64,000 nt of DNA, from the NCBI GenBank assembly GCA_036339735.1, contig JAYZAL010000019.1:1-64000 (forward strand), written 5' to 3'. The position numbers and the translations under genes are program-made. Source of the stretch: Candidatus Poribacteria bacterium (lineage in GTDB: Bacteria > Poribacteria > WGA-4E > UBA9662). Below, in pieces: positions 26,864 through 63,577 of the stretch. The first letter of the stretch is position 1. Each line of letters starts with the position of its first letter. The notes under the pieces are model-generated. The model worked only from the letters and a program-made list of their open reading frames with translations. It was not told the origin of the DNA and did not search any database.

Positions 26864-27979
26864 TTAATCGCTCTGTAATGTATGATATTCGGATAACTTT
26901 TTAATTGCTCTTTTTTCTATTTGTCGGACACGCTCACGAGAGATATTAAATTTACTTCCAATTTCTTGCAGGCTGTGTACTGGGTTGTTATTCAAACCAT
27001 ACCTAAGTTTAATAATGCTGCGATCCCTTTCGGTTAATGTTTGCAGAGCCAACGACAAGTGGTAGGTTAGATTTTCTATTTGTAATTTTCGAATTGGGTC
27101 TTCAATTGACTCATCAGGTAACCGATCTTCCCAACTGACAACTCGTTGGCTGTTGGAGATGTCTTCGTCTAATGAAACCATCGCCATATTGGATCGCAAA
27201 AGGAATTTTATTTTTTCTAATGGGAAGTCAACCTCCTGCGAAATTTCGGTTGCAGTTGGAGAAGAATAGCCCTTTTGTTCAAGAGTTTTTTTTGTCTTAT
27301 TGATTTTCTGAAGGTCCCTAATAACATGAACAGGCAACCGAACAGTACGTCCCATTTTAGCCACTCCTAAACCGATGGCCTGCTGAATCCACCAAGATGC
27401 ATATGCACTGAAACGAACCCCCCTTCGCCAATCGAACTTATCTACGGCTTTGATTAAGCCTAGGTTAGCTTCCTGAATTAGGTCAGGTAGGTCTAGCCCA
27501 CGATCTTGATAACGTTTAGCAATGTATACTGCCAATCGCAGATTAGAGGAAATAATTTGTTCTTTAATCTGGTCAATTCGTTTTTGTAGTGGTGAGATTA
27601 AAGAACAAAATAGGTCAGATAAATCCAAGTCTTTTTGGCAAGATTTCCGGTGATCATCGATTTGCTCAAAATAGCTATCAATCTGTTTGAAAAGTCTCAA
27701 CTCATCACTGAAGGAAAGTAACGAATATTGACCAATCTGATCCAGGTAAAGGTCCAAAGTTCCATTGGCCGTACCAATGTATGTTTTTTTATATGGTAAT
27801 TTTTCATCAGTTGTGGCTTCTGGTGGAGATACAGGTAACGCAGAAATTTCTGCGTATATAGACAGGTCAGTTGGTGCTGATAAGAACGGAAAATCATTGG
27901 TTTCCGTTAAATCATTTAGGGACCAATTATCGGCCGAATCAATTGATATTTGAGGAGAATAAGTTTCCAGCATAAACAT
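26864..27979 (-). CDS. RNA polymerase sigma factor, RpoD/SigA family (non-primary; start uncertain)
   Basis: Region 1.2 'LYLDQIG', 2.1 'NLRLAVYIAKRY', 2.2 'DLIQEANLGL', 2.4 'WWIQQAI', 4.2 'SRERVRQIE'. Confidence 0.95.
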   Translation of the reverse strand: MFMLETYSPQISIDSADNWSLNDLTETNDFPFLSAPTDLSIYAEISALPVSPPEATTDEKLPYKKTYIGTANGTLDLYLDQIGQYSLLSFSDELRLFKQIDSYFEQIDDHRKSCQKDLDLSDLFCSLISPLQKRIDQIKEQIISSNLRLAVYIAKRYQDRGLDLPDLIQEANLGLIKAVDKFDWRRGVRFSAYASWWIQQAIGLGVAKMGRTVRLPVHVIRDLQKINKTKKTLEQKGYSSPTATEISQEVDFPLEKIKFLLRSNMAMVSLDEDISNSQRVVSWEDRLPDESIEDPIRKLQIENLTYHLSLALQTLTERDRSIIKLRYGLNNNPVHSLQEIGSKFNISRERVRQIEKRAIKKLSEYHTLQSD

Positions 27980-36195: not shown

Positions 36196-38112
36196 ATGAT
36201 TAACCATTCACCAAACGATAAAAAGAAATCACTAGTTGGGAGTAGTTGGCGGTCAATATGCCTTGGCACACTTCTGATTATTCCCAACACATACTGGATT
36301 GTCGATTCAGGTGGACAGGGCTTTCCAACAACAGTTTCTCTCTATTACAACGTCATTTTTTGCATATTCTCCTTAGTAGGATTCAATTGGTTTATCTCTA
36401 AAATAAACTATAGCTGGGCCATGAAGCAAAGCGAATTATTGACTATTTACATGATGCTAGCAATCGCCTCCTCTCTAGCTGGTCATGATGTAATGAGAGT
36501 TCTAATACCCATGATTCCTTATCCTTTTTGGTATGCTACTTCAGAAAACGATTGGTCTGGTTTATTTCACCGATTTATACCAGACTGGATAGCCATCAAG
36601 GACAAAGAATTTTTAGTTGATTATTACAGGGGAGAATCCTCTTTTTACAGGTGGGAAATCATCGAAGTCTGGCTAACACCAATACTGGTATGGGGTGGAT
36701 TTTTAGCAGTAATGGTCTTTTTAATGATTTGTATAAACAGTGTAGTACGAAAACAATGGACCGAAAACGAAAAGTTAAGCTATCCAATTATCCAACTTCC
36801 GCTTGAGATGACTTATGGTGGTGGACTGACCGGTGTACTTAAACTAAAAACCTTATGGTTAGGTTTCCTTGCTGCTGGAACTATTGACATCCTCAATGGT
36901 TTACATCATTTATTTCCCTACGTACCTAGTTTGGGTGGAAAACTCTACGACCTAAAGCCTTTTTTTAGCCAGCGACCTTGGAGTGCCGTCGGTTGGACCC
37001 CGATTGCGGTTTTCCCATTTGCTGTTGGTTTGGCATTTTTCATCCCTTTGGATCTTTCTTTCTCATGTTGGTTTTTCTATTTATTTTGGAAAGTGGAAAG
37101 AATTGCAGGTGATGCGTTAGGCTTACGGACTATGCCAAATTTTCCTTTTGTTGATGAACAATCTTTTGGTGCTTACATCGGTTTATTTATAATTGCTGTC
37201 TACACTTCCAGGGAACACTTGAAAAGAATTTTTAGCAAAGTTGCTTTTAATGATCCAAGAGTAGATGATAGCAAAGAACCAATGTCATACCGGTTAATGG
37301 TCATAGGATCAACCCTCTCGATCTTGGCCATAGTTCTTTTCTGCAACGCAGCTGGAATGTCTATTTGGGTTGTTGTCATATTCTTTGGTATATACTACGC
37401 CGTTTCTACTGCTGTAACACGAATGAGAGCTGAACTTGGCTCACCCGTTCATGACCTACACTTTATTGGTCCAGATGAAATGATGCCACGTATATTCGGT
37501 ACCCGATTACTAGGTCCCAATAATTTAACTATGTTCGCTTATTTGTTTTTCTTTAATCGAGCTTACCGAGGTCATCCAATGCCCCATATTTTGGAAGGAT
37601 TTAAACTGGCCGAAAGATCAAACATGAAAAATCATCGCTTGATATTAGCAATGATAATTGCTATTTGCGTTGGCATTTTTTCAACCTTCTGGTCGTTTTA
37701 CCACGTTTCTTATTTGGAAGGAGCACTGGATTGGTTTGCTGATCGGCCATTTAACAGATTACAAAGTTGGTTGACAGTTCCACGTCCCCCTGACATACCT
37801 GCTATAGCCTCTATTTTCGTTGGTTTAGGTCTTACGTTTCTTCTTATGTTAATGAGGATGAATATATTCTGGTGGCCACTTCATCCCGCGGGTTTCGCCA
37901 TCTCTAGCAGTTGGTCAATGAATGTATTTTGGTTTTCAATCCTAGTTAGCTCTATCTTGAAATTGATAATCTTAAAACATGGGGGGATGGGAACGCACAG
38001 AAAGGTTACACCTTTTTTCCTAGGACTGATTCTTGGCGAATTTATTGTTGGTGGTATTTGGAGTTTGATCGGAATTTCGATCGACCGACCTATGTACCGA
38101 TTTCTATTTTAA
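36196..38112 (+). CDS. Multi-TM membrane protein, DUF6785/DUF6784 (OPT-like transporter) type
   Basis: 'RKQW.ENEKLSYPIIQLP', 'EPMSYR', 'RMRAELG', 'WWPLHPAGF', 'PFFLGLILGE'. Confidence 0.75.
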   Translation: MINHSPNDKKKSLVGSSWRSICLGTLLIIPNTYWIVDSGGQGFPTTVSLYYNVIFCIFSLVGFNWFISKINYSWAMKQSELLTIYMMLAIASSLAGHDVMRVLIPMIPYPFWYATSENDWSGLFHRFIPDWIAIKDKEFLVDYYRGESSFYRWEIIEVWLTPILVWGGFLAVMVFLMICINSVVRKQWTENEKLSYPIIQLPLEMTYGGGLTGVLKLKTLWLGFLAAGTIDILNGLHHLFPYVPSLGGKLYDLKPFFSQRPWSAVGWTPIAVFPFAVGLAFFIPLDLSFSCWFFYLFWKVERIAGDALGLRTMPNFPFVDEQSFGAYIGLFIIAVYTSREHLKRIFSKVAFNDPRVDDSKEPMSYRLMVIGSTLSILAIVLFCNAAGMSIWVVVIFFGIYYAVSTAVTRMRAELGSPVHDLHFIGPDEMMPRIFGTRLLGPNNLTMFAYLFFFNRAYRGHPMPHILEGFKLAERSNMKNHRLILAMIIAICVGIFSTFWSFYHVSYLEGALDWFADRPFNRLQSWLTVPRPPDIPAIASIFVGLGLTFLLMLMRMNIFWWPLHPAGFAISSSWSMNVFWFSILVSSILKLIILKHGGMGTHRKVTPFFLGLILGEFIVGGIWSLIGISIDRPMYRFLF

Positions 38113-38145
38113 AGTTGAAATATTAGAAAATAATCGGAGGTGTAG

Positions 38146-50010: not shown

Positions 50011-50814
50011 ATGAAAACATTCAGGTTTATTATTGTTGCTCTAGCTGTTTTGTTCGTGATCGCACCACTGCTTCACCTCGCACAAGCTAAATCAACAGGG
50101 GGTCCTGAACCTTCTCTGATACTCTATTTACCTTTCGATGAAGGCGAAGGAAATATTGCTGGAGATTCCTCAAGGTATGGTAATCATGGTAACCTACAAG
50201 GAATGAAACCAAATTTGCCTAATTGGGTCGATGGTAAATTCGGTAAAGCCCTCGAATTCAACGGTCAAAATAATTGGGTTGAAGTTCCACATAAAGATAT
50301 TCTATCTGTTGACAAGGCCGTCACAGTTATGGCTTGGATTAAGGCAAAACGCCATACAGGCGGATCAACCAAAGCTCAATGGGCCGGTGTTGTTACCAAA
50401 GGTAATAATCCAAGATCCTACAGTTTATATACTACAACAGATGGTGGTGGTGCCTTACACTTTAGCTCGATGGGCGGTTCTACCAGTGCATTGACAGTTG
50501 AGTTGAATAAATGGCAACACGTGGTCGCACAACACACTGGCAAATCACACATCTACTACGTAAATGGTGAGCTAGCAGGTGAATTTGATGGTAAAGCAGC
50601 ACTACCTGGTCTAAAAGACGATGCTAGTGTGATGATTGCTCGAAGCCACGAAGGTTCACGTGAATTTGAAGGCATCATTGATGAAGTCAAGATTTGGAAT
50701 CGTGTTTTAAGCGAAAAAGAAGTCAATCACCATATGAGCGTGGGTAAAGGTCAAGTCTCAGTTGAGCCGGAAGGTAAATTAGCAACAACTTGGAGCCAAC
50801 TAAAACGCCTATAA
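50011..50814 (+). CDS. Secreted LamG/concanavalin A-like domain protein
   Basis: Signal peptide, 'GKFGKALEFNG', 'WQHVV', 'GIIDEVKIWNRVLS', tail 'VEPEGKLATTWSQLK'. Confidence 0.92.
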   Translation: MKTFRFIIVALAVLFVIAPLLHLAQAKSTGGPEPSLILYLPFDEGEGNIAGDSSRYGNHGNLQGMKPNLPNWVDGKFGKALEFNGQNNWVEVPHKDILSVDKAVTVMAWIKAKRHTGGSTKAQWAGVVTKGNNPRSYSLYTTTDGGGALHFSSMGGSTSALTVELNKWQHVVAQHTGKSHIYYVNGELAGEFDGKAALPGLKDDASVMIARSHEGSREFEGIIDEVKIWNRVLSEKEVNHHMSVGKGQVSVEPEGKLATTWSQLKRL

Positions 50815-50828
50815 ACTAAAACCTACTC

Positions 50829-50859
50829 AAAACGCGGCTCATCTGAGTCGCGTTTTTTT
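50829..50859 (+). terminator. Intrinsic terminator
   Basis: AAAACGCGGCTCA-TC-TGAGTCGCGTTTTTTT. Confidence 0.8.
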
Positions 50860-50870
50860 ATGGGAGGAAA

Positions 50871-56863: not shown

Positions 56864-59158
56864 TTGATTAGTGTAAAAAATAAAAGATTATTTATCATAT
56901 TTCTACTGTCATCAGTGATTGCCCTTGAAACCTATTCTAGTGAAATAAGGGGGAGAGTTCTTCGCCAAGGTTCACAAGAACTGGTTAGTGGAGTAATTGT
57001 GAAAGTTTTGGGAACGGATCAAAAATTTATAACCGATGATCAGGGAGAATTTGAAATAACTGAACTACCAACTGGAACTTATCAATTAACCTTGACAAGA
57101 TTCCGTTTTCGTTCAAAAACAATTGAAGTCTTGGTACTTGACGATCAACCCCTCGATTTAGACGTTCGGCTAGAAAGAATCGATTTCATCTTCGACGAAA
57201 TAGTTGTGAGGGGGCAGCTTTTAACCGAATCGGTCAGTCGTCAAAGTGTGACTGGATTAGAAATAAAGCGTATACCGGGTGCTGGTGGAGATGCGTTGAG
57301 AGCTATCCAAGCTTTACCAGGTATCAAGGCTGGTGCAGATTTCGGAGGTCAACTTTATGTCCGTGGTGGTGGACCAGAAGATAATCAGATCTATTTTGAT
57401 CGTTATCCCTTGGCTAATGCTTATCATTTCGGAGGTTTAGTTTCAACTGTAAGTTCTGAAATTCTACAACGGATTGATATCTATGCTGGTGGATTTGGAG
57501 CTGAATATGGTCAGGATTCGCAGGCAATAATAGATATTTATTCGCGACCTGGTAATCGTAAGAACTTCAGTGGCAAAGTGAATTTAAATATTCTTTATGC
57601 TGAAGGACTGATAGAAGGTCCACTAGGGGAATCAGGGTCTTGGTATTTTGCAGGTCGTCGTAGTTATTTTGACCTTTTTCCGTTAGAAAGAGTAATAACG
57701 GTTATAACAGCATTCCCTAGATTCTGGGATTATCAAACACGATTTAACTACGAAATAAACGAGAAATACCAAATAGATTTTACAGCATTTGCAGCTGATG
57801 ATTTTGCAGAATTGGCTTTTACAGAAGAACAGCAAGATGAAGAAGAACTAAGAGGTGCCTTATACATAAAGAATTCGGCACATGTTCAAGGCTTCCACCT
57901 CCGTGCTTTGCTTACCCCACGCCTAACCTACGATTTTAATCTTTCTCACAACAAACAATTAGTAAATTTCAAGATTGGTCAAGGATTCTTCCTTCGTATA
58001 CAACCTGACGTGTATGATGTTAGACATGATGTAGTATATGAAATTTCGCCCAATGTACGTTTAGAAACAGGTTTGTTAAATTCAATTGGTGACGTTGTCG
58101 TTCAGCTGTTTTTTCCTAATCCTCCGGAAGAGGGAGATCCGAATTACGATTTTTTAGAAGCCGAAAAGAATAGAGTTGATACACAACAGGAAGATTATCA
58201 AGTGGAAGGCTACGTTCAAACACGTTTTACTCTTGGGGAATACCTATCCTTTGCATTAGGAACTCGAGTCGATTATTCTGCAGATTTAACAGCTCAGCCA
58301 ACGCCTCAACCACGTTTAAGTTTTAATTTAACAATGCCAGGATTACCACAATTAAGATTAGCTTACGGCCGTTATATGCAAACACCGCAGCCACCTCAGT
58401 TTTTTGAACCTGGGGGGAATCCAGAACTTGAGGAAAGTCTCTCAGACCATTTTATCCTAGAAATCGAAAGAGCTTTTGAAAATGGTACAGTGCTCAAGGC
58501 TGCTGGTTATCGTAAGCAGTTGGATAAACAGATTGAACCTGATCCTGAGGAAAATCCAGTAAAAAATAAGAATTACCTCAATATTGGAGAAGGTTACGCA
58601 CAAGGTGTCGAATTCTTACTCCAATATCGTCAAGGAGATCGATTTTTCGGTTGGTTGAGTTATGCAAGGTCTGTTTCCAAAAGAAGGGACGATCCAGATC
58701 AAGATTACCGATTTTATTCCTATGACCAAACACATATTGCAACTATCATCGCCAGCTACAAATTTACCAAGACATTTGAGATTGGAGGAAGATGGCAGTA
58801 TGCCACGGGAAACCCCTACACACCATTAACCTGTGAAGAAAATATTAGCAATCCATGTTACGAAAATATTATCAGTCCGAGAGATGGAAAAACTAGAAAA
58901 GTACCTCTCTATGGATCAATAAATTCTTTCCGTGTAGAACCATTTCATCGTCTCGATGTGAGAATCAGCAAAAATTTTGTTTTTGATACTTGGCAAATTG
59001 GAACCTACCTAGAATTAATAAATGCCTATAATCGAAAAAATGTCCTTCAGTTTAGCTATGACGACGAGTATGAACGCGACAAGGATGGAGAAGTGAAGAA
59101 AGACATAGTAGGACAGTTACCATTGCTACCTTATTTCGGAGTAATCATTGAGTTTTAA
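56864..59158 (+). CDS. TonB-dependent receptor with N-terminal carboxypeptidase-regulatory-like domain
   Basis: Signal peptide, 'DEIVVRG', plug 'DALRAIQALPGI..YVRGG..DN', 'AGGFGAEYG', 'NAYNRKN', terminal Phe. Confidence 0.93.
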   Translation: MISVKNKRLFIIFLLSSVIALETYSSEIRGRVLRQGSQELVSGVIVKVLGTDQKFITDDQGEFEITELPTGTYQLTLTRFRFRSKTIEVLVLDDQPLDLDVRLERIDFIFDEIVVRGQLLTESVSRQSVTGLEIKRIPGAGGDALRAIQALPGIKAGADFGGQLYVRGGGPEDNQIYFDRYPLANAYHFGGLVSTVSSEILQRIDIYAGGFGAEYGQDSQAIIDIYSRPGNRKNFSGKVNLNILYAEGLIEGPLGESGSWYFAGRRSYFDLFPLERVITVITAFPRFWDYQTRFNYEINEKYQIDFTAFAADDFAELAFTEEQQDEEELRGALYIKNSAHVQGFHLRALLTPRLTYDFNLSHNKQLVNFKIGQGFFLRIQPDVYDVRHDVVYEISPNVRLETGLLNSIGDVVVQLFFPNPPEEGDPNYDFLEAEKNRVDTQQEDYQVEGYVQTRFTLGEYLSFALGTRVDYSADLTAQPTPQPRLSFNLTMPGLPQLRLAYGRYMQTPQPPQFFEPGGNPELEESLSDHFILEIERAFENGTVLKAAGYRKQLDKQIEPDPEENPVKNKNYLNIGEGYAQGVEFLLQYRQGDRFFGWLSYARSVSKRRDDPDQDYRFYSYDQTHIATIIASYKFTKTFEIGGRWQYATGNPYTPLTCEENISNPCYENIISPRDGKTRKVPLYGSINSFRVEPFHRLDVRISKNFVFDTWQIGTYLELINAYNRKNVLQFSYDDEYERDKDGEVKKDIVGQLPLLPYFGVIIEF

Positions 59159-59562
59159 TGGCTAAATTAACGTCGAGCAGACTAGTTTCCCGAATAACCT
59201 TTCTTTTTCTTTCATTTCAAATTTTTTGTTTGCTCTCCTGTTCTGTGTTTGGTGGAAATTCATGTGGGGGGTTAGAAGATTTGGGTCAGTCTGCCCCAAA
59301 TGATTGCTGCCCTTATCATACATCCAATTCCACAGAAAAGTGTTGTTGGAAAACTGTAGTTATTACAGATCAAAAAAAGCCTCTTAAAATCTCTACGTCT
59401 GGTAACCAAAAAGGGTCTACATTTTTAGCATCTAGTCAAAGTGTGTTGGAGAGACAAAAGCTTGAGGGTCAAATTTGTTTTGTTTTTGTTTTGATTCCTC
59501 ATATTTCTTCAAAAGAATCACTATCCTTACCAAATCGATCGCCTCCTATCTCCATAATTTGA
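59158..59562 (+). CDS. Cys-rich leader protein ending in RSPP (DUF2946/CruR-like putative arrest peptide)
   Basis: N-terminal hydrophobic segment, two CC pairs (DCCPYH, KCCW), C-terminal 'LPNRSPPISII'; ATG overlaps the receptor stop (TAATG). Confidence 0.75.
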   Translation: MAKLTSSRLVSRITFLFLSFQIFCLLSCSVFGGNSCGGLEDLGQSAPNDCCPYHTSNSTEKCCWKTVVITDQKKPLKISTSGNQKGSTFLASSQSVLERQKLEGQICFVFVLIPHISSKESLSLPNRSPPISII

Positions 59563-59621
59563 GTTTTGTTGATGAGTAAAATGAAAATTATGAAAAAACG
59601 ACCTAAGCTATTATGGAGATA
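59547..59621 (+). promoter_or_regulatory. Shine-Dalgarno-sequestering stem (translational attenuator)
   Basis: TATCTCCATAAT (59547-59558) is the exact reverse complement of ATTATGGAGATA (59610-59621), which contains the GGAG RBS of the ATG at 59626. Confidence 0.8.
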
Positions 59622-59625
59622 ATAA

Positions 59626-60681
59626 ATGAAAGATAGAAAAAAGTGGATCTTGTTGGCAATATTGTTTTTTATTTTAAATTCGATACCATATGTCATTGCT
59701 CAAGATGCTTGAGGTGCCTGAAGTAACCCCATAATCCCTGAAATGGGGCCGAGCCGTGAGCTCGATATAGAAACGAAGAAAAAATTTCGATTCACTTTTA
59801 ACGTCACACGTTCTTTCAATGCAGAAGGTGGACATAGTGAAACAGGCGGATTGACAACCGATGGTCGACTAATCGAAATTGGAAACCATTGGCATCACGT
59901 GTCTATGTCAATGAGCCGTTTTAATTTAGGACTGCATTACCAATTAAATCCTCGAACTAAGCTAGCACTAGTCTTACCATATAGTATTAAAAATCAGTCA
60001 GCTGAAATTGAATGGGAAGCCTCAAACCCAAGTGTGAGTGACCAGGATGCAGCTATCCGGAATGGTTATATCCATCATAGAGATGAAACATATCGTGGGT
60101 TTGAAGATCTGAATTTAACGACTAACTACCACTGGAATGGGTTTACATCTATAAAAAACGACAGAATTACTCTGTCTGCTGGGTTGTCTATACCAACGGG
60201 TAAAATTGAACCTGATCCATATAAGCTCGGCGACGTAGGAAAAAAACATTTACATCTGCAGTTTGGTACAGGAACACTAACTCCAAGTTTCCAAGTTATC
60301 TACATATTGCCAGTAAACGATTTGCTGTCGGTACAATCTCGGTTATCATTTCGACGTCCCTTCTACGAAAACAAGTATAGTTTTCTGTCTCCTCCAGAAA
60401 CAAGTACCTATTTTGGTATAGCATTAAAAGTCTCGAATATCCTGAGATTACATGGGTCTTGGATGGTATTTAGGCAAGGATTTGGGTATTGGGATGGAAA
60501 TAGAGATCGAAATACTGGTATGCAAATGCATGCTTTACAATTGGGAACAAACACAACAATTGGTCGAAAAACCCCTTTAAATATTAGCGTAATTGTACCT
60601 ATCCATCAACAAATGCTTAGTACGGGGGATACATTCGAGCATGGTATTCTATTGTCGTCTAGTGTTTCTCATGTCTTTTAA
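59626..60681 (+). CDS. Putative selenoprotein (UxxU) outer-membrane beta-barrel transporter, 351 aa
   Basis: GGAG RBS and ATG 59626 give MKDRKKWILLAILFFILNSIPYVIAQDA*GA*SNPIIPEMGPS..., in frame with the listed ORF at 59743; TGA at 59710 and 59719; 'GLSIPTG', 'LQFGTGT', terminal Phe. Confidence 0.8.
59727..59764 (+). promoter_or_regulatory. Candidate bacterial SECIS hairpins
   Basis: CCCCAT/ATGGGG stem (59727-59748) and CGAGC/GCTCG stem (59750-59764) just 3' of the two TGA codons. Confidence 0.45.
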
Positions 60682-60692
60682 AACTAACTAAA

Positions 60693-60722
60693 TTGACAGT
60701 CAGAGGTCTGAATTGTTAGAAT
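60693..60722 (+). promoter_or_regulatory. Sigma70 promoter
   Basis: TTGACA-18-TAGAAT with extended TG. Confidence 0.65.
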
Positions 60723-60784
60723 GGGATAGTTTATGGGAAGCCATTTGGCAGTTTAGGTCAGGCAATGAAAATTAAGGAGTTTCT

Positions 60785-61792
60785 ATGGCAGATGTTATTC
60801 GTGGTGGAGTGATAGGATATGGTGGTGCTTTTAATATGGGGCGTAGCCATGCTGGGAGTATGCAAAACACTGAAGGTATAGAATGCGTGGCAATTTGCGA
60901 CATTGACCCAGAACGTACTAAAGCCGCTAAAGAAGATTTTCCACAAGTTCGTACTTACAACGACAGTGATGATTTTTTTGCTGACGAAAGCATTGATTTA
61001 GTAACTATTGTTCTGCCTCACAATTTACATGCTCCTGTGGCTATTCAAGCACTTAATGCTGGTAAGCATGCAATAACTGAAAAACCGATGTGCATTACAG
61101 TATCAGAAGCGACTTCGATGATTGAGTCAGCAAAATCTAATGGAAAAATGTTATCGGTTTATCACAATCGGCGTTGGGATCAAGATTTTTGGACATTAAA
61201 GGGTATAATAGAGAGTGGTGTTATTGGTAGACCGCACACGATTGAAATGCGTGCTAGTGGTTATGGTCGGCCGAACCCAGATTGGTGGAGAAGTGTAAAG
61301 TCTGTTTCGGGTGGTATCATATATGACTGGGGGGCACACTATATCGACTGGCTACTAAACGTAGTTGATAATAAAATGATCAGTGTAACCGGATTTTATA
61401 TTGATAATGAAGTCTGGACAGATATTAGTAATGAAGATCATGCACGTGCGTTCATTCGATTTGACGGAGACTTAGTAGCTGACGTGGAATTTTCCCAGAT
61501 CGCTAAAATTGGAGGAGATCGATGGAAGATCTTAGGTACCCATGGGGCAATTCAATCCGCAGATGGCCATTTCAAAGTGTGGTCAGAAATCGAAAATCAG
61601 CAAAGTGAACAAGAAATCTCATATCAAGGTCGCCCAGGCCATAGTTTCTATCAAAATATTGTAGCTCACCTCAGAGAGAATGAACCATTAATAGTTACAC
61701 CAGAGTCTGCTCGACGGGTAATTGCTGTAATGGATTTGGCTGAGAGGTCAGCGAAGTCGCATCAAGCTGAAACCGTACCTTACGAATTTTAA
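60785..61792 (+). CDS. Gfo/Idh/MocA family oxidoreductase
   Basis: 'GVIGYGG', 'TEKPM', 'HNRRWD', 'DWGAHYID'. Confidence 0.93.
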   Translation: MADVIRGGVIGYGGAFNMGRSHAGSMQNTEGIECVAICDIDPERTKAAKEDFPQVRTYNDSDDFFADESIDLVTIVLPHNLHAPVAIQALNAGKHAITEKPMCITVSEATSMIESAKSNGKMLSVYHNRRWDQDFWTLKGIIESGVIGRPHTIEMRASGYGRPNPDWWRSVKSVSGGIIYDWGAHYIDWLLNVVDNKMISVTGFYIDNEVWTDISNEDHARAFIRFDGDLVADVEFSQIAKIGGDRWKILGTHGAIQSADGHFKVWSEIENQQSEQEISYQGRPGHSFYQNIVAHLRENEPLIVTPESARRVIAVMDLAERSAKSHQAETVPYEF

Positions 61793-61888: not shown

Positions 61889-63577
61889 TCAAATGTTCCC
61901 TGTTCCTCGGTGTTGACTAAGCCGGTTAACAGCGTAAGTTCCAATTGAAACTATAATAATAGCAATTACCCCTAAGCTCGCGCTTGGTCCTCTACCTGTA
62001 GTTTCTTGCATATACAAATATATGCCGTAAGAAATAGGGGCCATTTCATTTCTTGGTACGAGCATTAAAGTCGAACTTAATTCGACTGAAGAGCTAATGA
62101 AGGCCATGATTCCACCTGCTACAATACCTGGTAACATTAGGGGTAAAACGATTTTAGTAAAGGTAGATAGAGTATTTGCACCTAGATTTTTTGAGGCTTC
62201 TTCTAGAGATATGTGAATTTGTTGCAACGTAGCATAGCAAGATCGAACTGTGTATGGTAATCTGCGAACCGCGTAGACAATTACTAGGATCAACCAAGTC
62301 TCAGTCAGTGGTTTACCAATGACAGGCAAATCTATCGTGTGGAATATTCTTAGGTAGCCAATTGCCAAAACTACACCTGGGACTGCTAAAGGTAATGTGG
62401 CAATGAAATCCAAAATTGTTCGGCCTAGCATCTTTCCTCTAAGCAGTATGAAAGAAATTATGGCTCCTAGAAATATATCAATCAGAGCCGCCAATGCAGC
62501 GTATACAATAGTATTAAGTATCATTTTTGGGGCATCGGCAAAAACTCTGGTGAAATTGGTAGTGGTATAGATTTTGGGCAGAACTGTAAAGTTCCAAGAT
62601 TTAGCAATAGACATTAGAAAAATACCTATGTGTGGCAGTAAGCAAAAAGTTAACAAAATTATACAGAAACCACTAATCGTCCAACCTTTCCAACCAAAAA
62701 TTTGCAGTCTAGAAATGGAACTACCTGACTTTTGTTGTACATATTCCGATTGCTTAAGATAGTGCAGTGCAAGAACCAATGAGAAGAGAGATAACACAAC
62801 CAGAATTACAGAAATAACATATCCCATTGTACTATTGCCATTAATAGCGGTAATTTGTTGATAAGCTAGAGGTGCTAACAAATTATGATAACCAAGCATC
62901 AGGGGAGTACCGAGATCGTCTATACTTTTGATAAAAACAATTAGTGCACCAGCCATATACCCTGGTTGCATCAGTGGAAATGTGATTTGGCGAAACAGTT
63001 TCCATCCGGAAGCTCCTAGGTTTCTTCCAGCTTCTTCCAGGGAGAGGTCTGCGTTTTCTAAGGCTGATACAGAATTAAGTAAAATAAAGGGAAAGTAGTG
63101 TAATGTTTGAACTAAAACAACACCGGTTAATCCGTCCATGAAAGGAATGGTCGTACCAAAAAACATCCGGATAATTTGATTGATCATACCACTTCGCCCC
63201 AAAATTGTTTGTAGAGCAATAGCGCTAACAAAAGCTGGCATGACCAATGGTAAAACGCCCAGTGTTTGAACGATCAATCGACCTTTGAAGTTATAACGGG
63301 TGGTAAATAAAGCCAAAGGTAAGCTAATAATACTGCTAAAGAAAACTACGATAACACCTACCCATAAACTTCGCCACAAAGCCTCGTTTAGCGAAGGCTG
63401 CTTGAAAAAATTGACAAAGTGGGTTAGTGTTAGGCGACCATTTTCAGTAAATGCGACGTAAATCACTTGCAAAATTGGGAGTAGGATGAAAAAAGATAAG
63501 AGTACCAATAAGCAAATGAAAAGAAGGAATTGGCCAGGGGTTGATGAACCCCGTATTCGTCTGAAAAGTTCTTTCAT
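61889..63577 (-). CDS. ABC transporter permease, FbpB (Fe3+/thiamine-type) family
   Basis: Two EAA loops ('LEEAGRNLGA', 'LEEASKNLGA'), about 12 TMs. Confidence 0.92.
   Translation of the reverse strand: MKELFRRIRGSSTPGQFLLFICLLVLLSFFILLPILQVIYVAFTENGRLTLTHFVNFFKQPSLNEALWRSLWVGVIVVFFSSIISLPLALFTTRYNFKGRLIVQTLGVLPLVMPAFVSAIALQTILGRSGMINQIIRMFFGTTIPFMDGLTGVVLVQTLHYFPFILLNSVSALENADLSLEEAGRNLGASGWKLFRQITFPLMQPGYMAGALIVFIKSIDDLGTPLMLGYHNLLAPLAYQQITAINGNSTMGYVISVILVVLSLFSLVLALHYLKQSEYVQQKSGSSISRLQIFGWKGWTISGFCIILLTFCLLPHIGIFLMSIAKSWNFTVLPKIYTTTNFTRVFADAPKMILNTIVYAALAALIDIFLGAIISFILLRGKMLGRTILDFIATLPLAVPGVVLAIGYLRIFHTIDLPVIGKPLTETWLILVIVYAVRRLPYTVRSCYATLQQIHISLEEASKNLGANTLSTFTKIVLPLMLPGIVAGGIMAFISSSVELSSTLMLVPRNEMAPISYGIYLYMQETTGRGPSASLGVIAIIIVSIGTYAVNRLSQHRGTGNI

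Follow-up and report, generated by a model that had tools for sequence, protein, structure and literature searches.

A candidate arrest-peptide leader with a helix over the Shine-Dalgarno sequence of a putative selenoprotein barrel gene in Poribacteria

Background

In SecM, an export signal is combined with a C-terminal RAGP arrest sequence, and a stem-loop hides secA's Shine-Dalgarno (SD) sequence until the stalled ribosome disrupts the stem (PMC10987492, PMC7897499). RAPP and RGPP are described as the strongest and most versatile arrest cores, refractory to EF-P and among the most avoided tetrapeptides, and they are enriched near the C-termini of exported proteins of 100-200 amino acids (aa) encoded 5' of genes for TonB-dependent receptors, YcnI, PCu(A)C or PepSY proteins (PMC12992588). 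Two leaders, CutF and CruR, are proven copper sensors (PMC9973294, PMC9426467). The present report concerns a candidate leader of this type in a DNA stretch of 64,000 nucleotides (nt) from Candidatus Poribacteria bacterium (GenBank assembly GCA_036339735.1, contig JAYZAL010000019.1, positions 1 to 64,000 of the forward strand; "the window" hereafter), in which an open reading frame (ORF) of 134 codons ending in R-S-P-P-I-S-I-I is followed by a gene for a beta-barrel protein whose SD sequence lies within a long helix. An earlier reading of these letters (the original prediction) had proposed that a ribosome stalled at R-x-P-P opens this helix; its two general premises, that RAPP-type motifs stall ribosomes and that opening of a SecM-type hairpin frees a downstream SD, are borne out by the literature (PMC12992588, PMC10987492, PMC7897499).

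The read-out of the two copper sensors differs. CruR (Bordetella pertussis Bp2923, DUF2946, PF11162) has a signal peptide, a CXXC motif 45 residues before RAPP, and RAPP three residues from its end; it sits 5' of the gene of a TonB-dependent transporter, and copper relieves the stall, after which Rho terminates transcription (PMC9426467). With CutF (Rhodobacter capsulatus, cutFOG), stalling melts a stem-loop that shields the downstream ribosome-binding site (PMC9973294; bioRxiv 10.1101/2025.02.05.636593). CutF-like proteins have been collected by a simple rule (fewer than 150 aa, a signal peptide, a Cys/His motif, and PP among the final 15 residues), and they form 29 clusters, mostly from Pseudomonadota and Bacteroidota (PMC9973294). 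For ApcA, ApdA and ApdP, the available sections of the source state that no SD-sequestering hairpin could be predicted (PMC7897499).

The design of the switch considered here is thus already known from CutF, CruR and the RAPP leaders, and the Poribacteria family is most likely a further case of it, not a new design. Our search of the literature turned up no account joining Poribacteria with arrest peptides (the supplements of PMC12992588 and PMC9973294, which may list the family, lay outside this search), and a search on arrest peptides together with anti-SD pairing of CCUCC or proline codons turned up no description of such pairing. Few of the catalogued RAPP/RGPP leaders of metal genes have a worked-out read-out, and the present family would add a case supported by covariation in an uncultivated phylum.

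Results

The leader ORF (59158..59562, + strand) encodes 134 aa followed by a TGA stop. Its product is rich in cysteine and of exported type: residues 1-28 (59158..59241) comprise a basic N-region, a hydrophobic core and a lipobox-like L-L-S-C28, which we read by eye as a signal peptide, and the conserved cysteines that follow (59263..59346) are C36 (59263-59265), C50-C51 (59305-59310) and C62-C63 (59341-59346). The codons CGA TCG CCT CCT at 59536..59547 specify R-S-P-P, residues 127-130, exactly where the original prediction had placed this RAPP-like putative arrest core, and four codons (I-S-I-I) and the stop come after it. From its sequence features and from analogy with the systems described above, we think that this ORF is probably a regulatory leader of the CutF/CruR type, that is, a nascent-chain sensor whose arrest-peptide switch would control translation of the barrel gene.

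The conservation of the leader is a main argument for this reading. Two profiles were used, A1 from the four closest homologs and A2 from 13 sequences, the latter built after A1 had given weak matches of the same architecture in other families of the order. With A2, a homolog was found in 147 of the 159 genomes of the order (4/6, 110/112, 10/11 and 22/29 in its families f1, f2, f3 and f4, respectively) and in none of 17 genomes from other families of the phylum; the A1 search of 1.84 billion representative sequences returned six proteins, so that the leader is rare. Relatives are 124-152 aa long and only 14-38% identical to the window leader, and in A2 the invariant positions are M1, C28, C36, C50, C62, R127, P129 and P130, with C24, C51 and C63 nearly invariant. 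An R-[AGSP]-P-P tail is present in 93 of the 94 loci examined, the exception (L096) being a truncated copy. The motif is canonical RAPP in f3 and f4 (as in SPRAPPF), RRGPP in f2, and RSPP or RPPP in the genus of the window. Exactly four residues follow the Pro-Pro in 87 loci, with five in L004 and L055, two in L073, L080 and L082, and none in L092. All six arginine codons (CGA, CGC, CGG, CGT, AGA and AGG) are used, which indicates that selection acts on the peptide, and the second proline uses all four of its codons. Finally, the distance between the second CC pair and the arginine is 65 residues, neither more nor fewer, in 75 of 91 loci, the window among them (C62 to R127), while the sequence of the linker between them is not conserved.

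How far does this protein resemble its described counterparts? The family falls within the CutF-like rule (again with the signal peptide read by eye) but not within the DUF2946 model: the window leader has 134 aa, its Pro-Pro is P129-P130 of 134, and a spacer of 63 nt separates it from the ATG of the barrel gene, whereas none of the 13 members of A2 matched the DUF2946 hidden Markov model at E <= 10, and neither did anything else in the genome of the window. A match to DUF6769 (E = 0.22) is below any threshold and was discarded. With CutF the family shares a small exported protein, a cysteine motif suited to metal binding, a Pro-Pro near the end, a stem-loop shielding the ribosome-binding site, and downstream genes for the handling of metals in the envelope; it differs in lacking similarity to DUF2946, in having one cysteine and two CC pairs instead of CXXXC, in the placing of the 5' arm, at the arrest codons or on them, with the helix closing a spacer of 108-130 nt in most genera, and in its output genes (a barrel with a U-G-A-U motif, a YtkA-like protein or a DUF3347 protein, instead of a multicopper oxidase), and the window leader, unlike CutF, lies 3' of a TonB-receptor gene. 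Like CruR, the family has what looks by eye like a signal peptide, cysteines whose distance to the RAPP-type motif near the C-terminus is fixed, genetic linkage with a TonB-dependent transporter and, in most relatives, a long structured spacer; however, the spacing from cysteine to RAPP is 45 residues in CruR and 65 here, the motif is followed by three residues in CruR and by four here, there is no conserved CXXC in A2 (the conserved cysteines being C36, CC50-51 and CC62-63), and CruR heads its operon and acts through Rho-dependent termination, with copper relieving the stall. SecM, MifM and VemP have in common with this family an N-terminal export signal, a C-terminal arrest sequence and a stem-loop over the downstream SD, and SecM, which ends in GIRAGP and four more codons past the arrest proline, is close in this detail also; they monitor and regulate the Sec/YidC machinery, whereas the Poribacteria leaders contain conserved cysteines and have as outputs envelope proteins with no relation to export. 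As to ApdA, ApdP and ApcA, these too are small exported proteins whose R-A/G-P-P core is close to the C-terminus (PMC7897499, PMC10951233, PMC12992588; the relatives in the present family have RAPP in f3 and f4 and RGPP in f2), but structure prediction gave no SD-sequestering hairpin for them (PMC7897499), whereas the Poribacteria hairpin is clear and covarying, and the core in the window is RSPP.

The second main argument is the helix itself. In the window, a repeat search identifies 59547-59558 (TATCTCCATAAT, + strand, within the codons of the last Pro, Ile, Ser, Ile and Ile) as the exact reverse complement of 59610-59621 (ATTATGGAGATA), 12 base pairs (bp) with the arms 51 nt apart. The 3' arm contains the GGAG (59615-59618) that serves as SD of the barrel gene, 7 nt 5' of its ATG (59626), so that the perfect stem claimed by the original prediction, masking included, is upheld by exact complementarity; the loop (59559..59609) contains the stop codon of the leader (59560-59562) and a small inner hairpin. 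Folding of 59520-59640 with RNAfold, a check proposed beforehand, gives the full 12-bp helix in both the minimum free energy (MFE) structure and the centroid (-20.9 kcal/mol, z = -3.2, with one of 200 shuffled sequences folding as well), and in the partition function the probability of pairing between the SD zone and the stall region is 1.00. A scan of 58800-60900 against Rfam at E <= 10 gave only two sub-threshold chance matches. The loop also holds a mini-ORF of 13 codons, M-K-I-M-K-K-R-P-K-L-L-W-R (59581-59622, ending in TAA TAA), which is in frame with the ATG of the barrel, directly abuts it and crosses the 3' arm; it was set aside as a second leader, its counterpart in the related locus L002 being in another frame and encoding an unrelated peptide.

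One may ask whether this helix could be a chance inverted repeat, a terminator or an element of RNA stability, unrelated to the control of translation. A perfect 12-bp repeat is not improbable in itself: a first-order Markov model predicts 0.86 perfect 12-bp seeds in 64 kb of this composition, and there are three distinct ones with loops of 3-100 nt in the window (at 27556, 59547 and 61805), so that the case rests on the position of the helix and on its conservation in relatives. On both counts this explanation fares badly, and we hold it to be very improbable: the helix covers the SD exactly, and the arrangement recurs, with arms that differ in sequence and have changed in a compensatory way, in 63 of 92 loci, the controls giving 18 of 400. 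The terminator version was rejected, since the helix is AT-rich and lacks a U-tract.

The figures just quoted come from a survey of the 92 loci with an identifiable downstream start, in which a segment running from 30 nt before the codon for Arg until 12 nt beyond the start was folded with the partition function, and the probability of pairing with the stall region was averaged over positions -13 to -6, with p >= 0.5 as threshold (a previous attempt with RNAduplex, pairing the stall region with 460 nt downstream, was dropped for its long, loop-rich spurious duplexes in favour of this measure and of the longest contiguous helix). The 63 positive loci are distributed among the genera as follows: 2/3 in g1, 1/2 in g2, 0/1 in g3, 30/35 in g4 and g18 together, 10/10 in g7, 16/17 in g8, 0/17 in g9, 1/2 in g10, 1/1 in g13, 2/3 in g16 and 0/1 in g17. 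As controls, 400 junctions between genes on the same strand were taken from the genome to which the window belongs, with ORFs called crudely, 30-250 nt of spacer and an SD at least as strong as -5 kcal/mol; besides the 18 that reach 0.5, one reaches 0.9, and the maximum is 0.90, to be compared with 1.00 for the junction under study. Elsewhere in the window, two junctions (about 38109-38145 and 50811-50870) have an SD that is predicted, with p = 0.79 and 0.75, to pair with the 3' end of the preceding gene.

The longest contiguous helix has 12-14 bp in eight of the ten loci of g7, where the 5' arm lies on the codons of R-A-P-P-F, 9-11 bp in all 17 loci of g8, 9 bp in g13 and g16, 5-11 bp in g4, and 8 bp (Watson-Crick) in L002, on the codons of R-S-P; the position of the 5' arm therefore shifts between lineages, yet it remains at the arrest site. 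In L111, when compared with the rest of its genus, a T>C change in the 5' arm (Phe to Leu) is compensated by A>G in the 3' arm. For 59 different pairs of arms, aligned on the CCUCC:GGAGG core that they share, between 36 and 47 are paired at each of the positions -1 and +5 to +9, where two to four types of pair occur, and the number falls sharply to 2-4 of the 59 from +10 onward. In a MAFFT alignment of 58 distinct sequences (A6), 70.0% of the cells of a 16-pair helix are paired, versus 64.8 +/- 0.7% after shuffling (0/500 as high), 57 cells show double changes versus 30.1 +/- 4.7 (0/500), the covariation score is 0.148 versus 0.077, and slid registers give only 35.9-51.0% paired cells; these loci being related to one another, both the counts and the shuffle tests overstate the independence of the observations. 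For the first Pro, 81 of the 92 loci use CCT, a codon that accounts for 10-36% of the other Pro codons in these loci (in g7, 9/10 against a background of 10%). Hence, of what the original prediction had expected of homologous loci, the covariation of the arms was found, and the retention of the stem in relatives holds for most of them, the nearest relative L003, the locus L004 and the whole of genus g9 having no helix at the stall site.

The gene that would be controlled (59626..60681, + strand, 351 codons) encodes a signal peptide and an outer-membrane beta-barrel. Its product matches no Pfam or NCBIfam model; an AlphaFold model (mean predicted local distance difference test score 76.5, predicted template-modelling score 0.73) is a 12-stranded beta-barrel, most similar according to Foldseek to FapF and to the COG4313 outer-membrane channel (E 6e-13 to 2e-12, target-normalised template-modelling score about 0.70), so that the label of barrel given to it from the letters alone was apt. 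Two in-frame TGA codons, at 59710-59712 and 59719-59721, lie directly past the signal peptide and its cleavage region, the sequence there reading VIAQDA-U-G-A-U-SNPIIP; the motif TGA-GGT-GCC-TGA (59710..59721) would correspond to a double selenocysteine. Homologs of the barrel were found in 32 of 41 related genomes, nearly all matches carrying two in-frame TGA codons, and in 20 loci the motif is U-G-A-U 18 times and C-x-A-U twice (L005 and L006), with C-P-A-U in the barrel paralogs of g9. All 16 barrel proteins in the databases begin 3' of the UGA codons (83-89% coverage for 15 clear homologs, 50% for the weakest match), which indicates that their starts were mis-called.

The genome of the window encodes SelB, SelA and SelD above the cut-offs; no tRNA-Sec was found in its assembly, which is 92% complete, the best matches being tRNA-Ser. 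The selD gene itself (contig C70:27515-28441, L128) has one in-frame TGA, so that SelD is probably a selenoprotein too. Two hairpins that follow the second UGA (59727-59748 and 59750-59764, together 59727..59764, + strand) are candidate elements similar to the selenocysteine insertion sequence (SECIS). Hairpins are found at this place in all 20 loci (L001-L020), with stems that differ in sequence and shift in register; the post-UGA region of the window folds with z = -2.56, and the second hairpin has three pairs with double changes. RNAalifold did not recover the first hairpin in this region, which we attribute to the register shifts between lineages. No NCBIfam selenoprotein model matches the barrel, and the table of a 2026 review, in the part of it available, gives UxxU for other families only (PMC13188914). 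These sequence data make it probable that the barrel gene encodes an unannotated protein with two selenocysteines, U-G-A-U being conserved across the order; such a mis-annotated double-selenocysteine barrel of the outer membrane would extend the short list of envelope selenoproteins.

Discussion

The reading that we favour can be put as follows. In the resting mRNA, the helix 59547-59558/59610-59621 would keep the barrel gene's SD hidden. With Pro129 in its P site (59542-59544) and Pro130 in its A site, a stalled ribosome would cover or unwind the 5' arm; the codon presumed to be in the P site starts at 59542, and the arm begins 5 nt past that base. Ribosomes occupy some 13-15 nt of message on the 3' side of the P site; a stalled one would thus shield or unwind the message up to about 59555-59557, that is, most of the 5' arm, and the A-U pairs left over would not hold. 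The SD would then be free and the barrel translated, until release of the stall leads to termination at 59560-59562, the helix re-forms and initiation falls. Both the stalling at RSPP and this footprint over the 5' arm are deduced from the described systems and from the geometry of the site. Those parts of the original prediction that can be examined in silico came out as it had supposed: the R-x-P-P tail (in 93 of the 94 loci), the covarying arms and the invariant, regularly spaced CC pairs.

What would set the duration of the stall? That the cysteines are invariant, and that a 65-residue ruler separates them from the motif, argues for the surroundings of the exposed N-terminal part of the nascent chain, and the CC pairs, which would be kept at 65 and 77 residues' distance from the peptidyl-transferase centre, make metal binding, export through SecYEG, or both, the candidates; 65 residues would be about the length needed to span the exit tunnel and the translocon. 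By analogy with CutF and CruR, and from the gene context, the ligand may well be a metal, the binding of which could either release the stall, as in CruR, or prolong it, as in CutF.

Several observations weigh against this reading. RSPP is only partially permissive in ApdA and ApdP (PMC12992588), the leader has no sequence match to DUF2946, and the window leader, unlike cruR and cutF, is not the first gene of its operon, overlapping as it does the stop of the TonB-receptor gene. Five pairs of the helix are automatic wherever the Pro-Pro uses CCT, CCU-CCN being complementary to GGAGG, and the relatedness of the loci has been mentioned. Any ribosome at the last codons would open the helix, so that the helix alone is no proof of arrest. 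In L003, the nearest relative and a member of the same genus, the pairing of the SD with the stall region has p = 0.00, and in a wider fold the SD pairs instead with a segment about 60 nt 5' of the RPPP codons, which is easier to reconcile with a helix opened by whichever ribosome translates the ORF than with one opened by a ribosome parked at the motif. There is no stall-site helix in L004 (spacer of 204 nt), nor in any of the 17 loci of g9, despite an RRGPP tail and a barrel gene downstream; the spacer of g9 (170-200 nt, L066-L082) has several conserved hairpins and no clear SD or helix between Pro codons and SD, with a weaker CUAUCC/GGAUGG closure in several MFE folds, which suggests that this genus has a different read-out.

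Some of these points would be at home in another hypothesis, that of plain translational coupling without programmed arrest, in which the SD of the barrel stays shut by the helix as long as the leader, and with it the receptor gene whose stop overlaps its start, goes untranslated, passing or terminating ribosomes open the helix briefly, and the R-x-P-P tail serves the mature lipoprotein, for instance in contacts or in sorting. The 5' arm lies within the last five codons, so that a terminating ribosome covers it too; the anti-SD of L003, inside the ORF and far from RPPP, fits opening by passage and not at a stall site; the overlap of receptor gene and leader in TAATG points to coupling of a stoichiometric kind; and a published leader defective in arrest still opens a stem of this kind transiently in a reporter (PMC10987492). 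We nevertheless consider this hypothesis unlikely, because it leaves unexplained the invariant Arg, small residue and Pro-Pro in proteins that are 14-38% identical, in a motif whose relatives are avoided by bacterial proteomes (PMC12992588), as well as the fixed 65-residue distance to the CC pair; moreover, the spacers of most genera, at 108-130 nt, are long for ordinary coupling.

The length of these spacers (108-200 nt in most genera, 63 nt in the window) is more easily accommodated by a read-out at the level of transcription, in which the stalled ribosome would mainly block Rho-dependent termination in the spacer, the helix being secondary or additive. CruR, the best-studied RAPP leader beside a TonB-dependent transporter, works in this manner, and long spacers are typical of it (PMC9426467). 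In the window, however, the spacer is short and mostly inside the helix, and in the family the covarying pairs sit exactly on the SD; contigs from RNA libraries also run through the spacer, which is a weak point against termination there. We regard such a read-out as improbable in place of the arrest-peptide switch of translation, with which it could coexist.

If the arrest-peptide switch is accepted, a more specific and more speculative proposal can be made, which we advance tentatively, as a possibility that we would not yet call probable. The Pro-Pro arrest codons and their flanks would double as anti-SD, closing a loop of 50-130 nt, so that a ribosome occupying the arrest site would translate directly into an exposed SD, and this would be coupled to a 65-residue ruler by which, at the time of the arrest, one CC pair comes to lie where the Sec translocon opens to the outside; the leaders would then be transmembrane nascent-chain sensors, present throughout the order. 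In the lineage of the window, the sensor would control a hitherto unrecognised outer-membrane channel with an N-terminal selenocysteine-Gly-Ala-selenocysteine motif capable of forming a diselenide. Arrest-peptide sensing would in this case be linked to the use of a selenoprotein for handling metals or chalcogens in the envelope. Specialists should find three things here worth following up, namely the overlap of arrest codons and anti-SD, the fixed 65-residue spacing and the putative selenoprotein as output, and the family combines an arrest core lying on the anti-SD, sensor cysteines at a fixed distance, and three classes of envelope proteins as outputs.

Additional observations

These three classes follow from the genes found downstream of the leader: a barrel gene or, in other genera, a gene for a YtkA-like, His-rich secreted protein (L053 and L089) or one for a DUF3347 lipoprotein (L095, L097, L107 and L112), the histidines being concentrated at the N-terminus, so that one leader family serves three output genes. 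In the window the locus comprises four genes on the + strand, in the order TonB-dependent receptor, leader, then (after the 63-nt spacer) barrel, and GFO/IDH/MocA oxidoreductase. The receptor gene (56864..59158, + strand, 764 aa as listed) has the Pfam domains CarboxypepD_reg and Plug, and its TAA stop shares one base with the ATG of the leader (TAATG). The leader, coupled to the receptor gene in the window, heads its own operon in g4, g9 and g16, where a promoter-like element, TTGCAA/TGGAAC ... TGTATAAT, can be recognised by eye 5' of it (for example in L036, L069 and L089), in two tandem copies in L089.

The stretch occurs in marine metagenomes from several studies. Contigs from RNA libraries (two studies) bridge the leader, the spacer and the start of the barrel gene: X17 covers 59538-59843 and X18 covers 59403-59719, both being identical to the window in the two arms, with one A>G at 59587, in the loop. 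As carry-over of DNA is possible, they offer weak support for co-transcription of leader and barrel; they give no transcript ends, and the parts that they leave uncovered (59168-59309, for example) are uninformative.

Of the two other perfect inverted repeats in the window, one has 15 bp (27556-27570/27595-27609) and a loop of 24 nt. The other, of 18 bp with a loop of 14 nt (61805-61822/61837-61854), lies between the convergent oxidoreductase gene (ending at 61792) and ABC-permease gene (ending at 61889), and is probably a bidirectional terminator.

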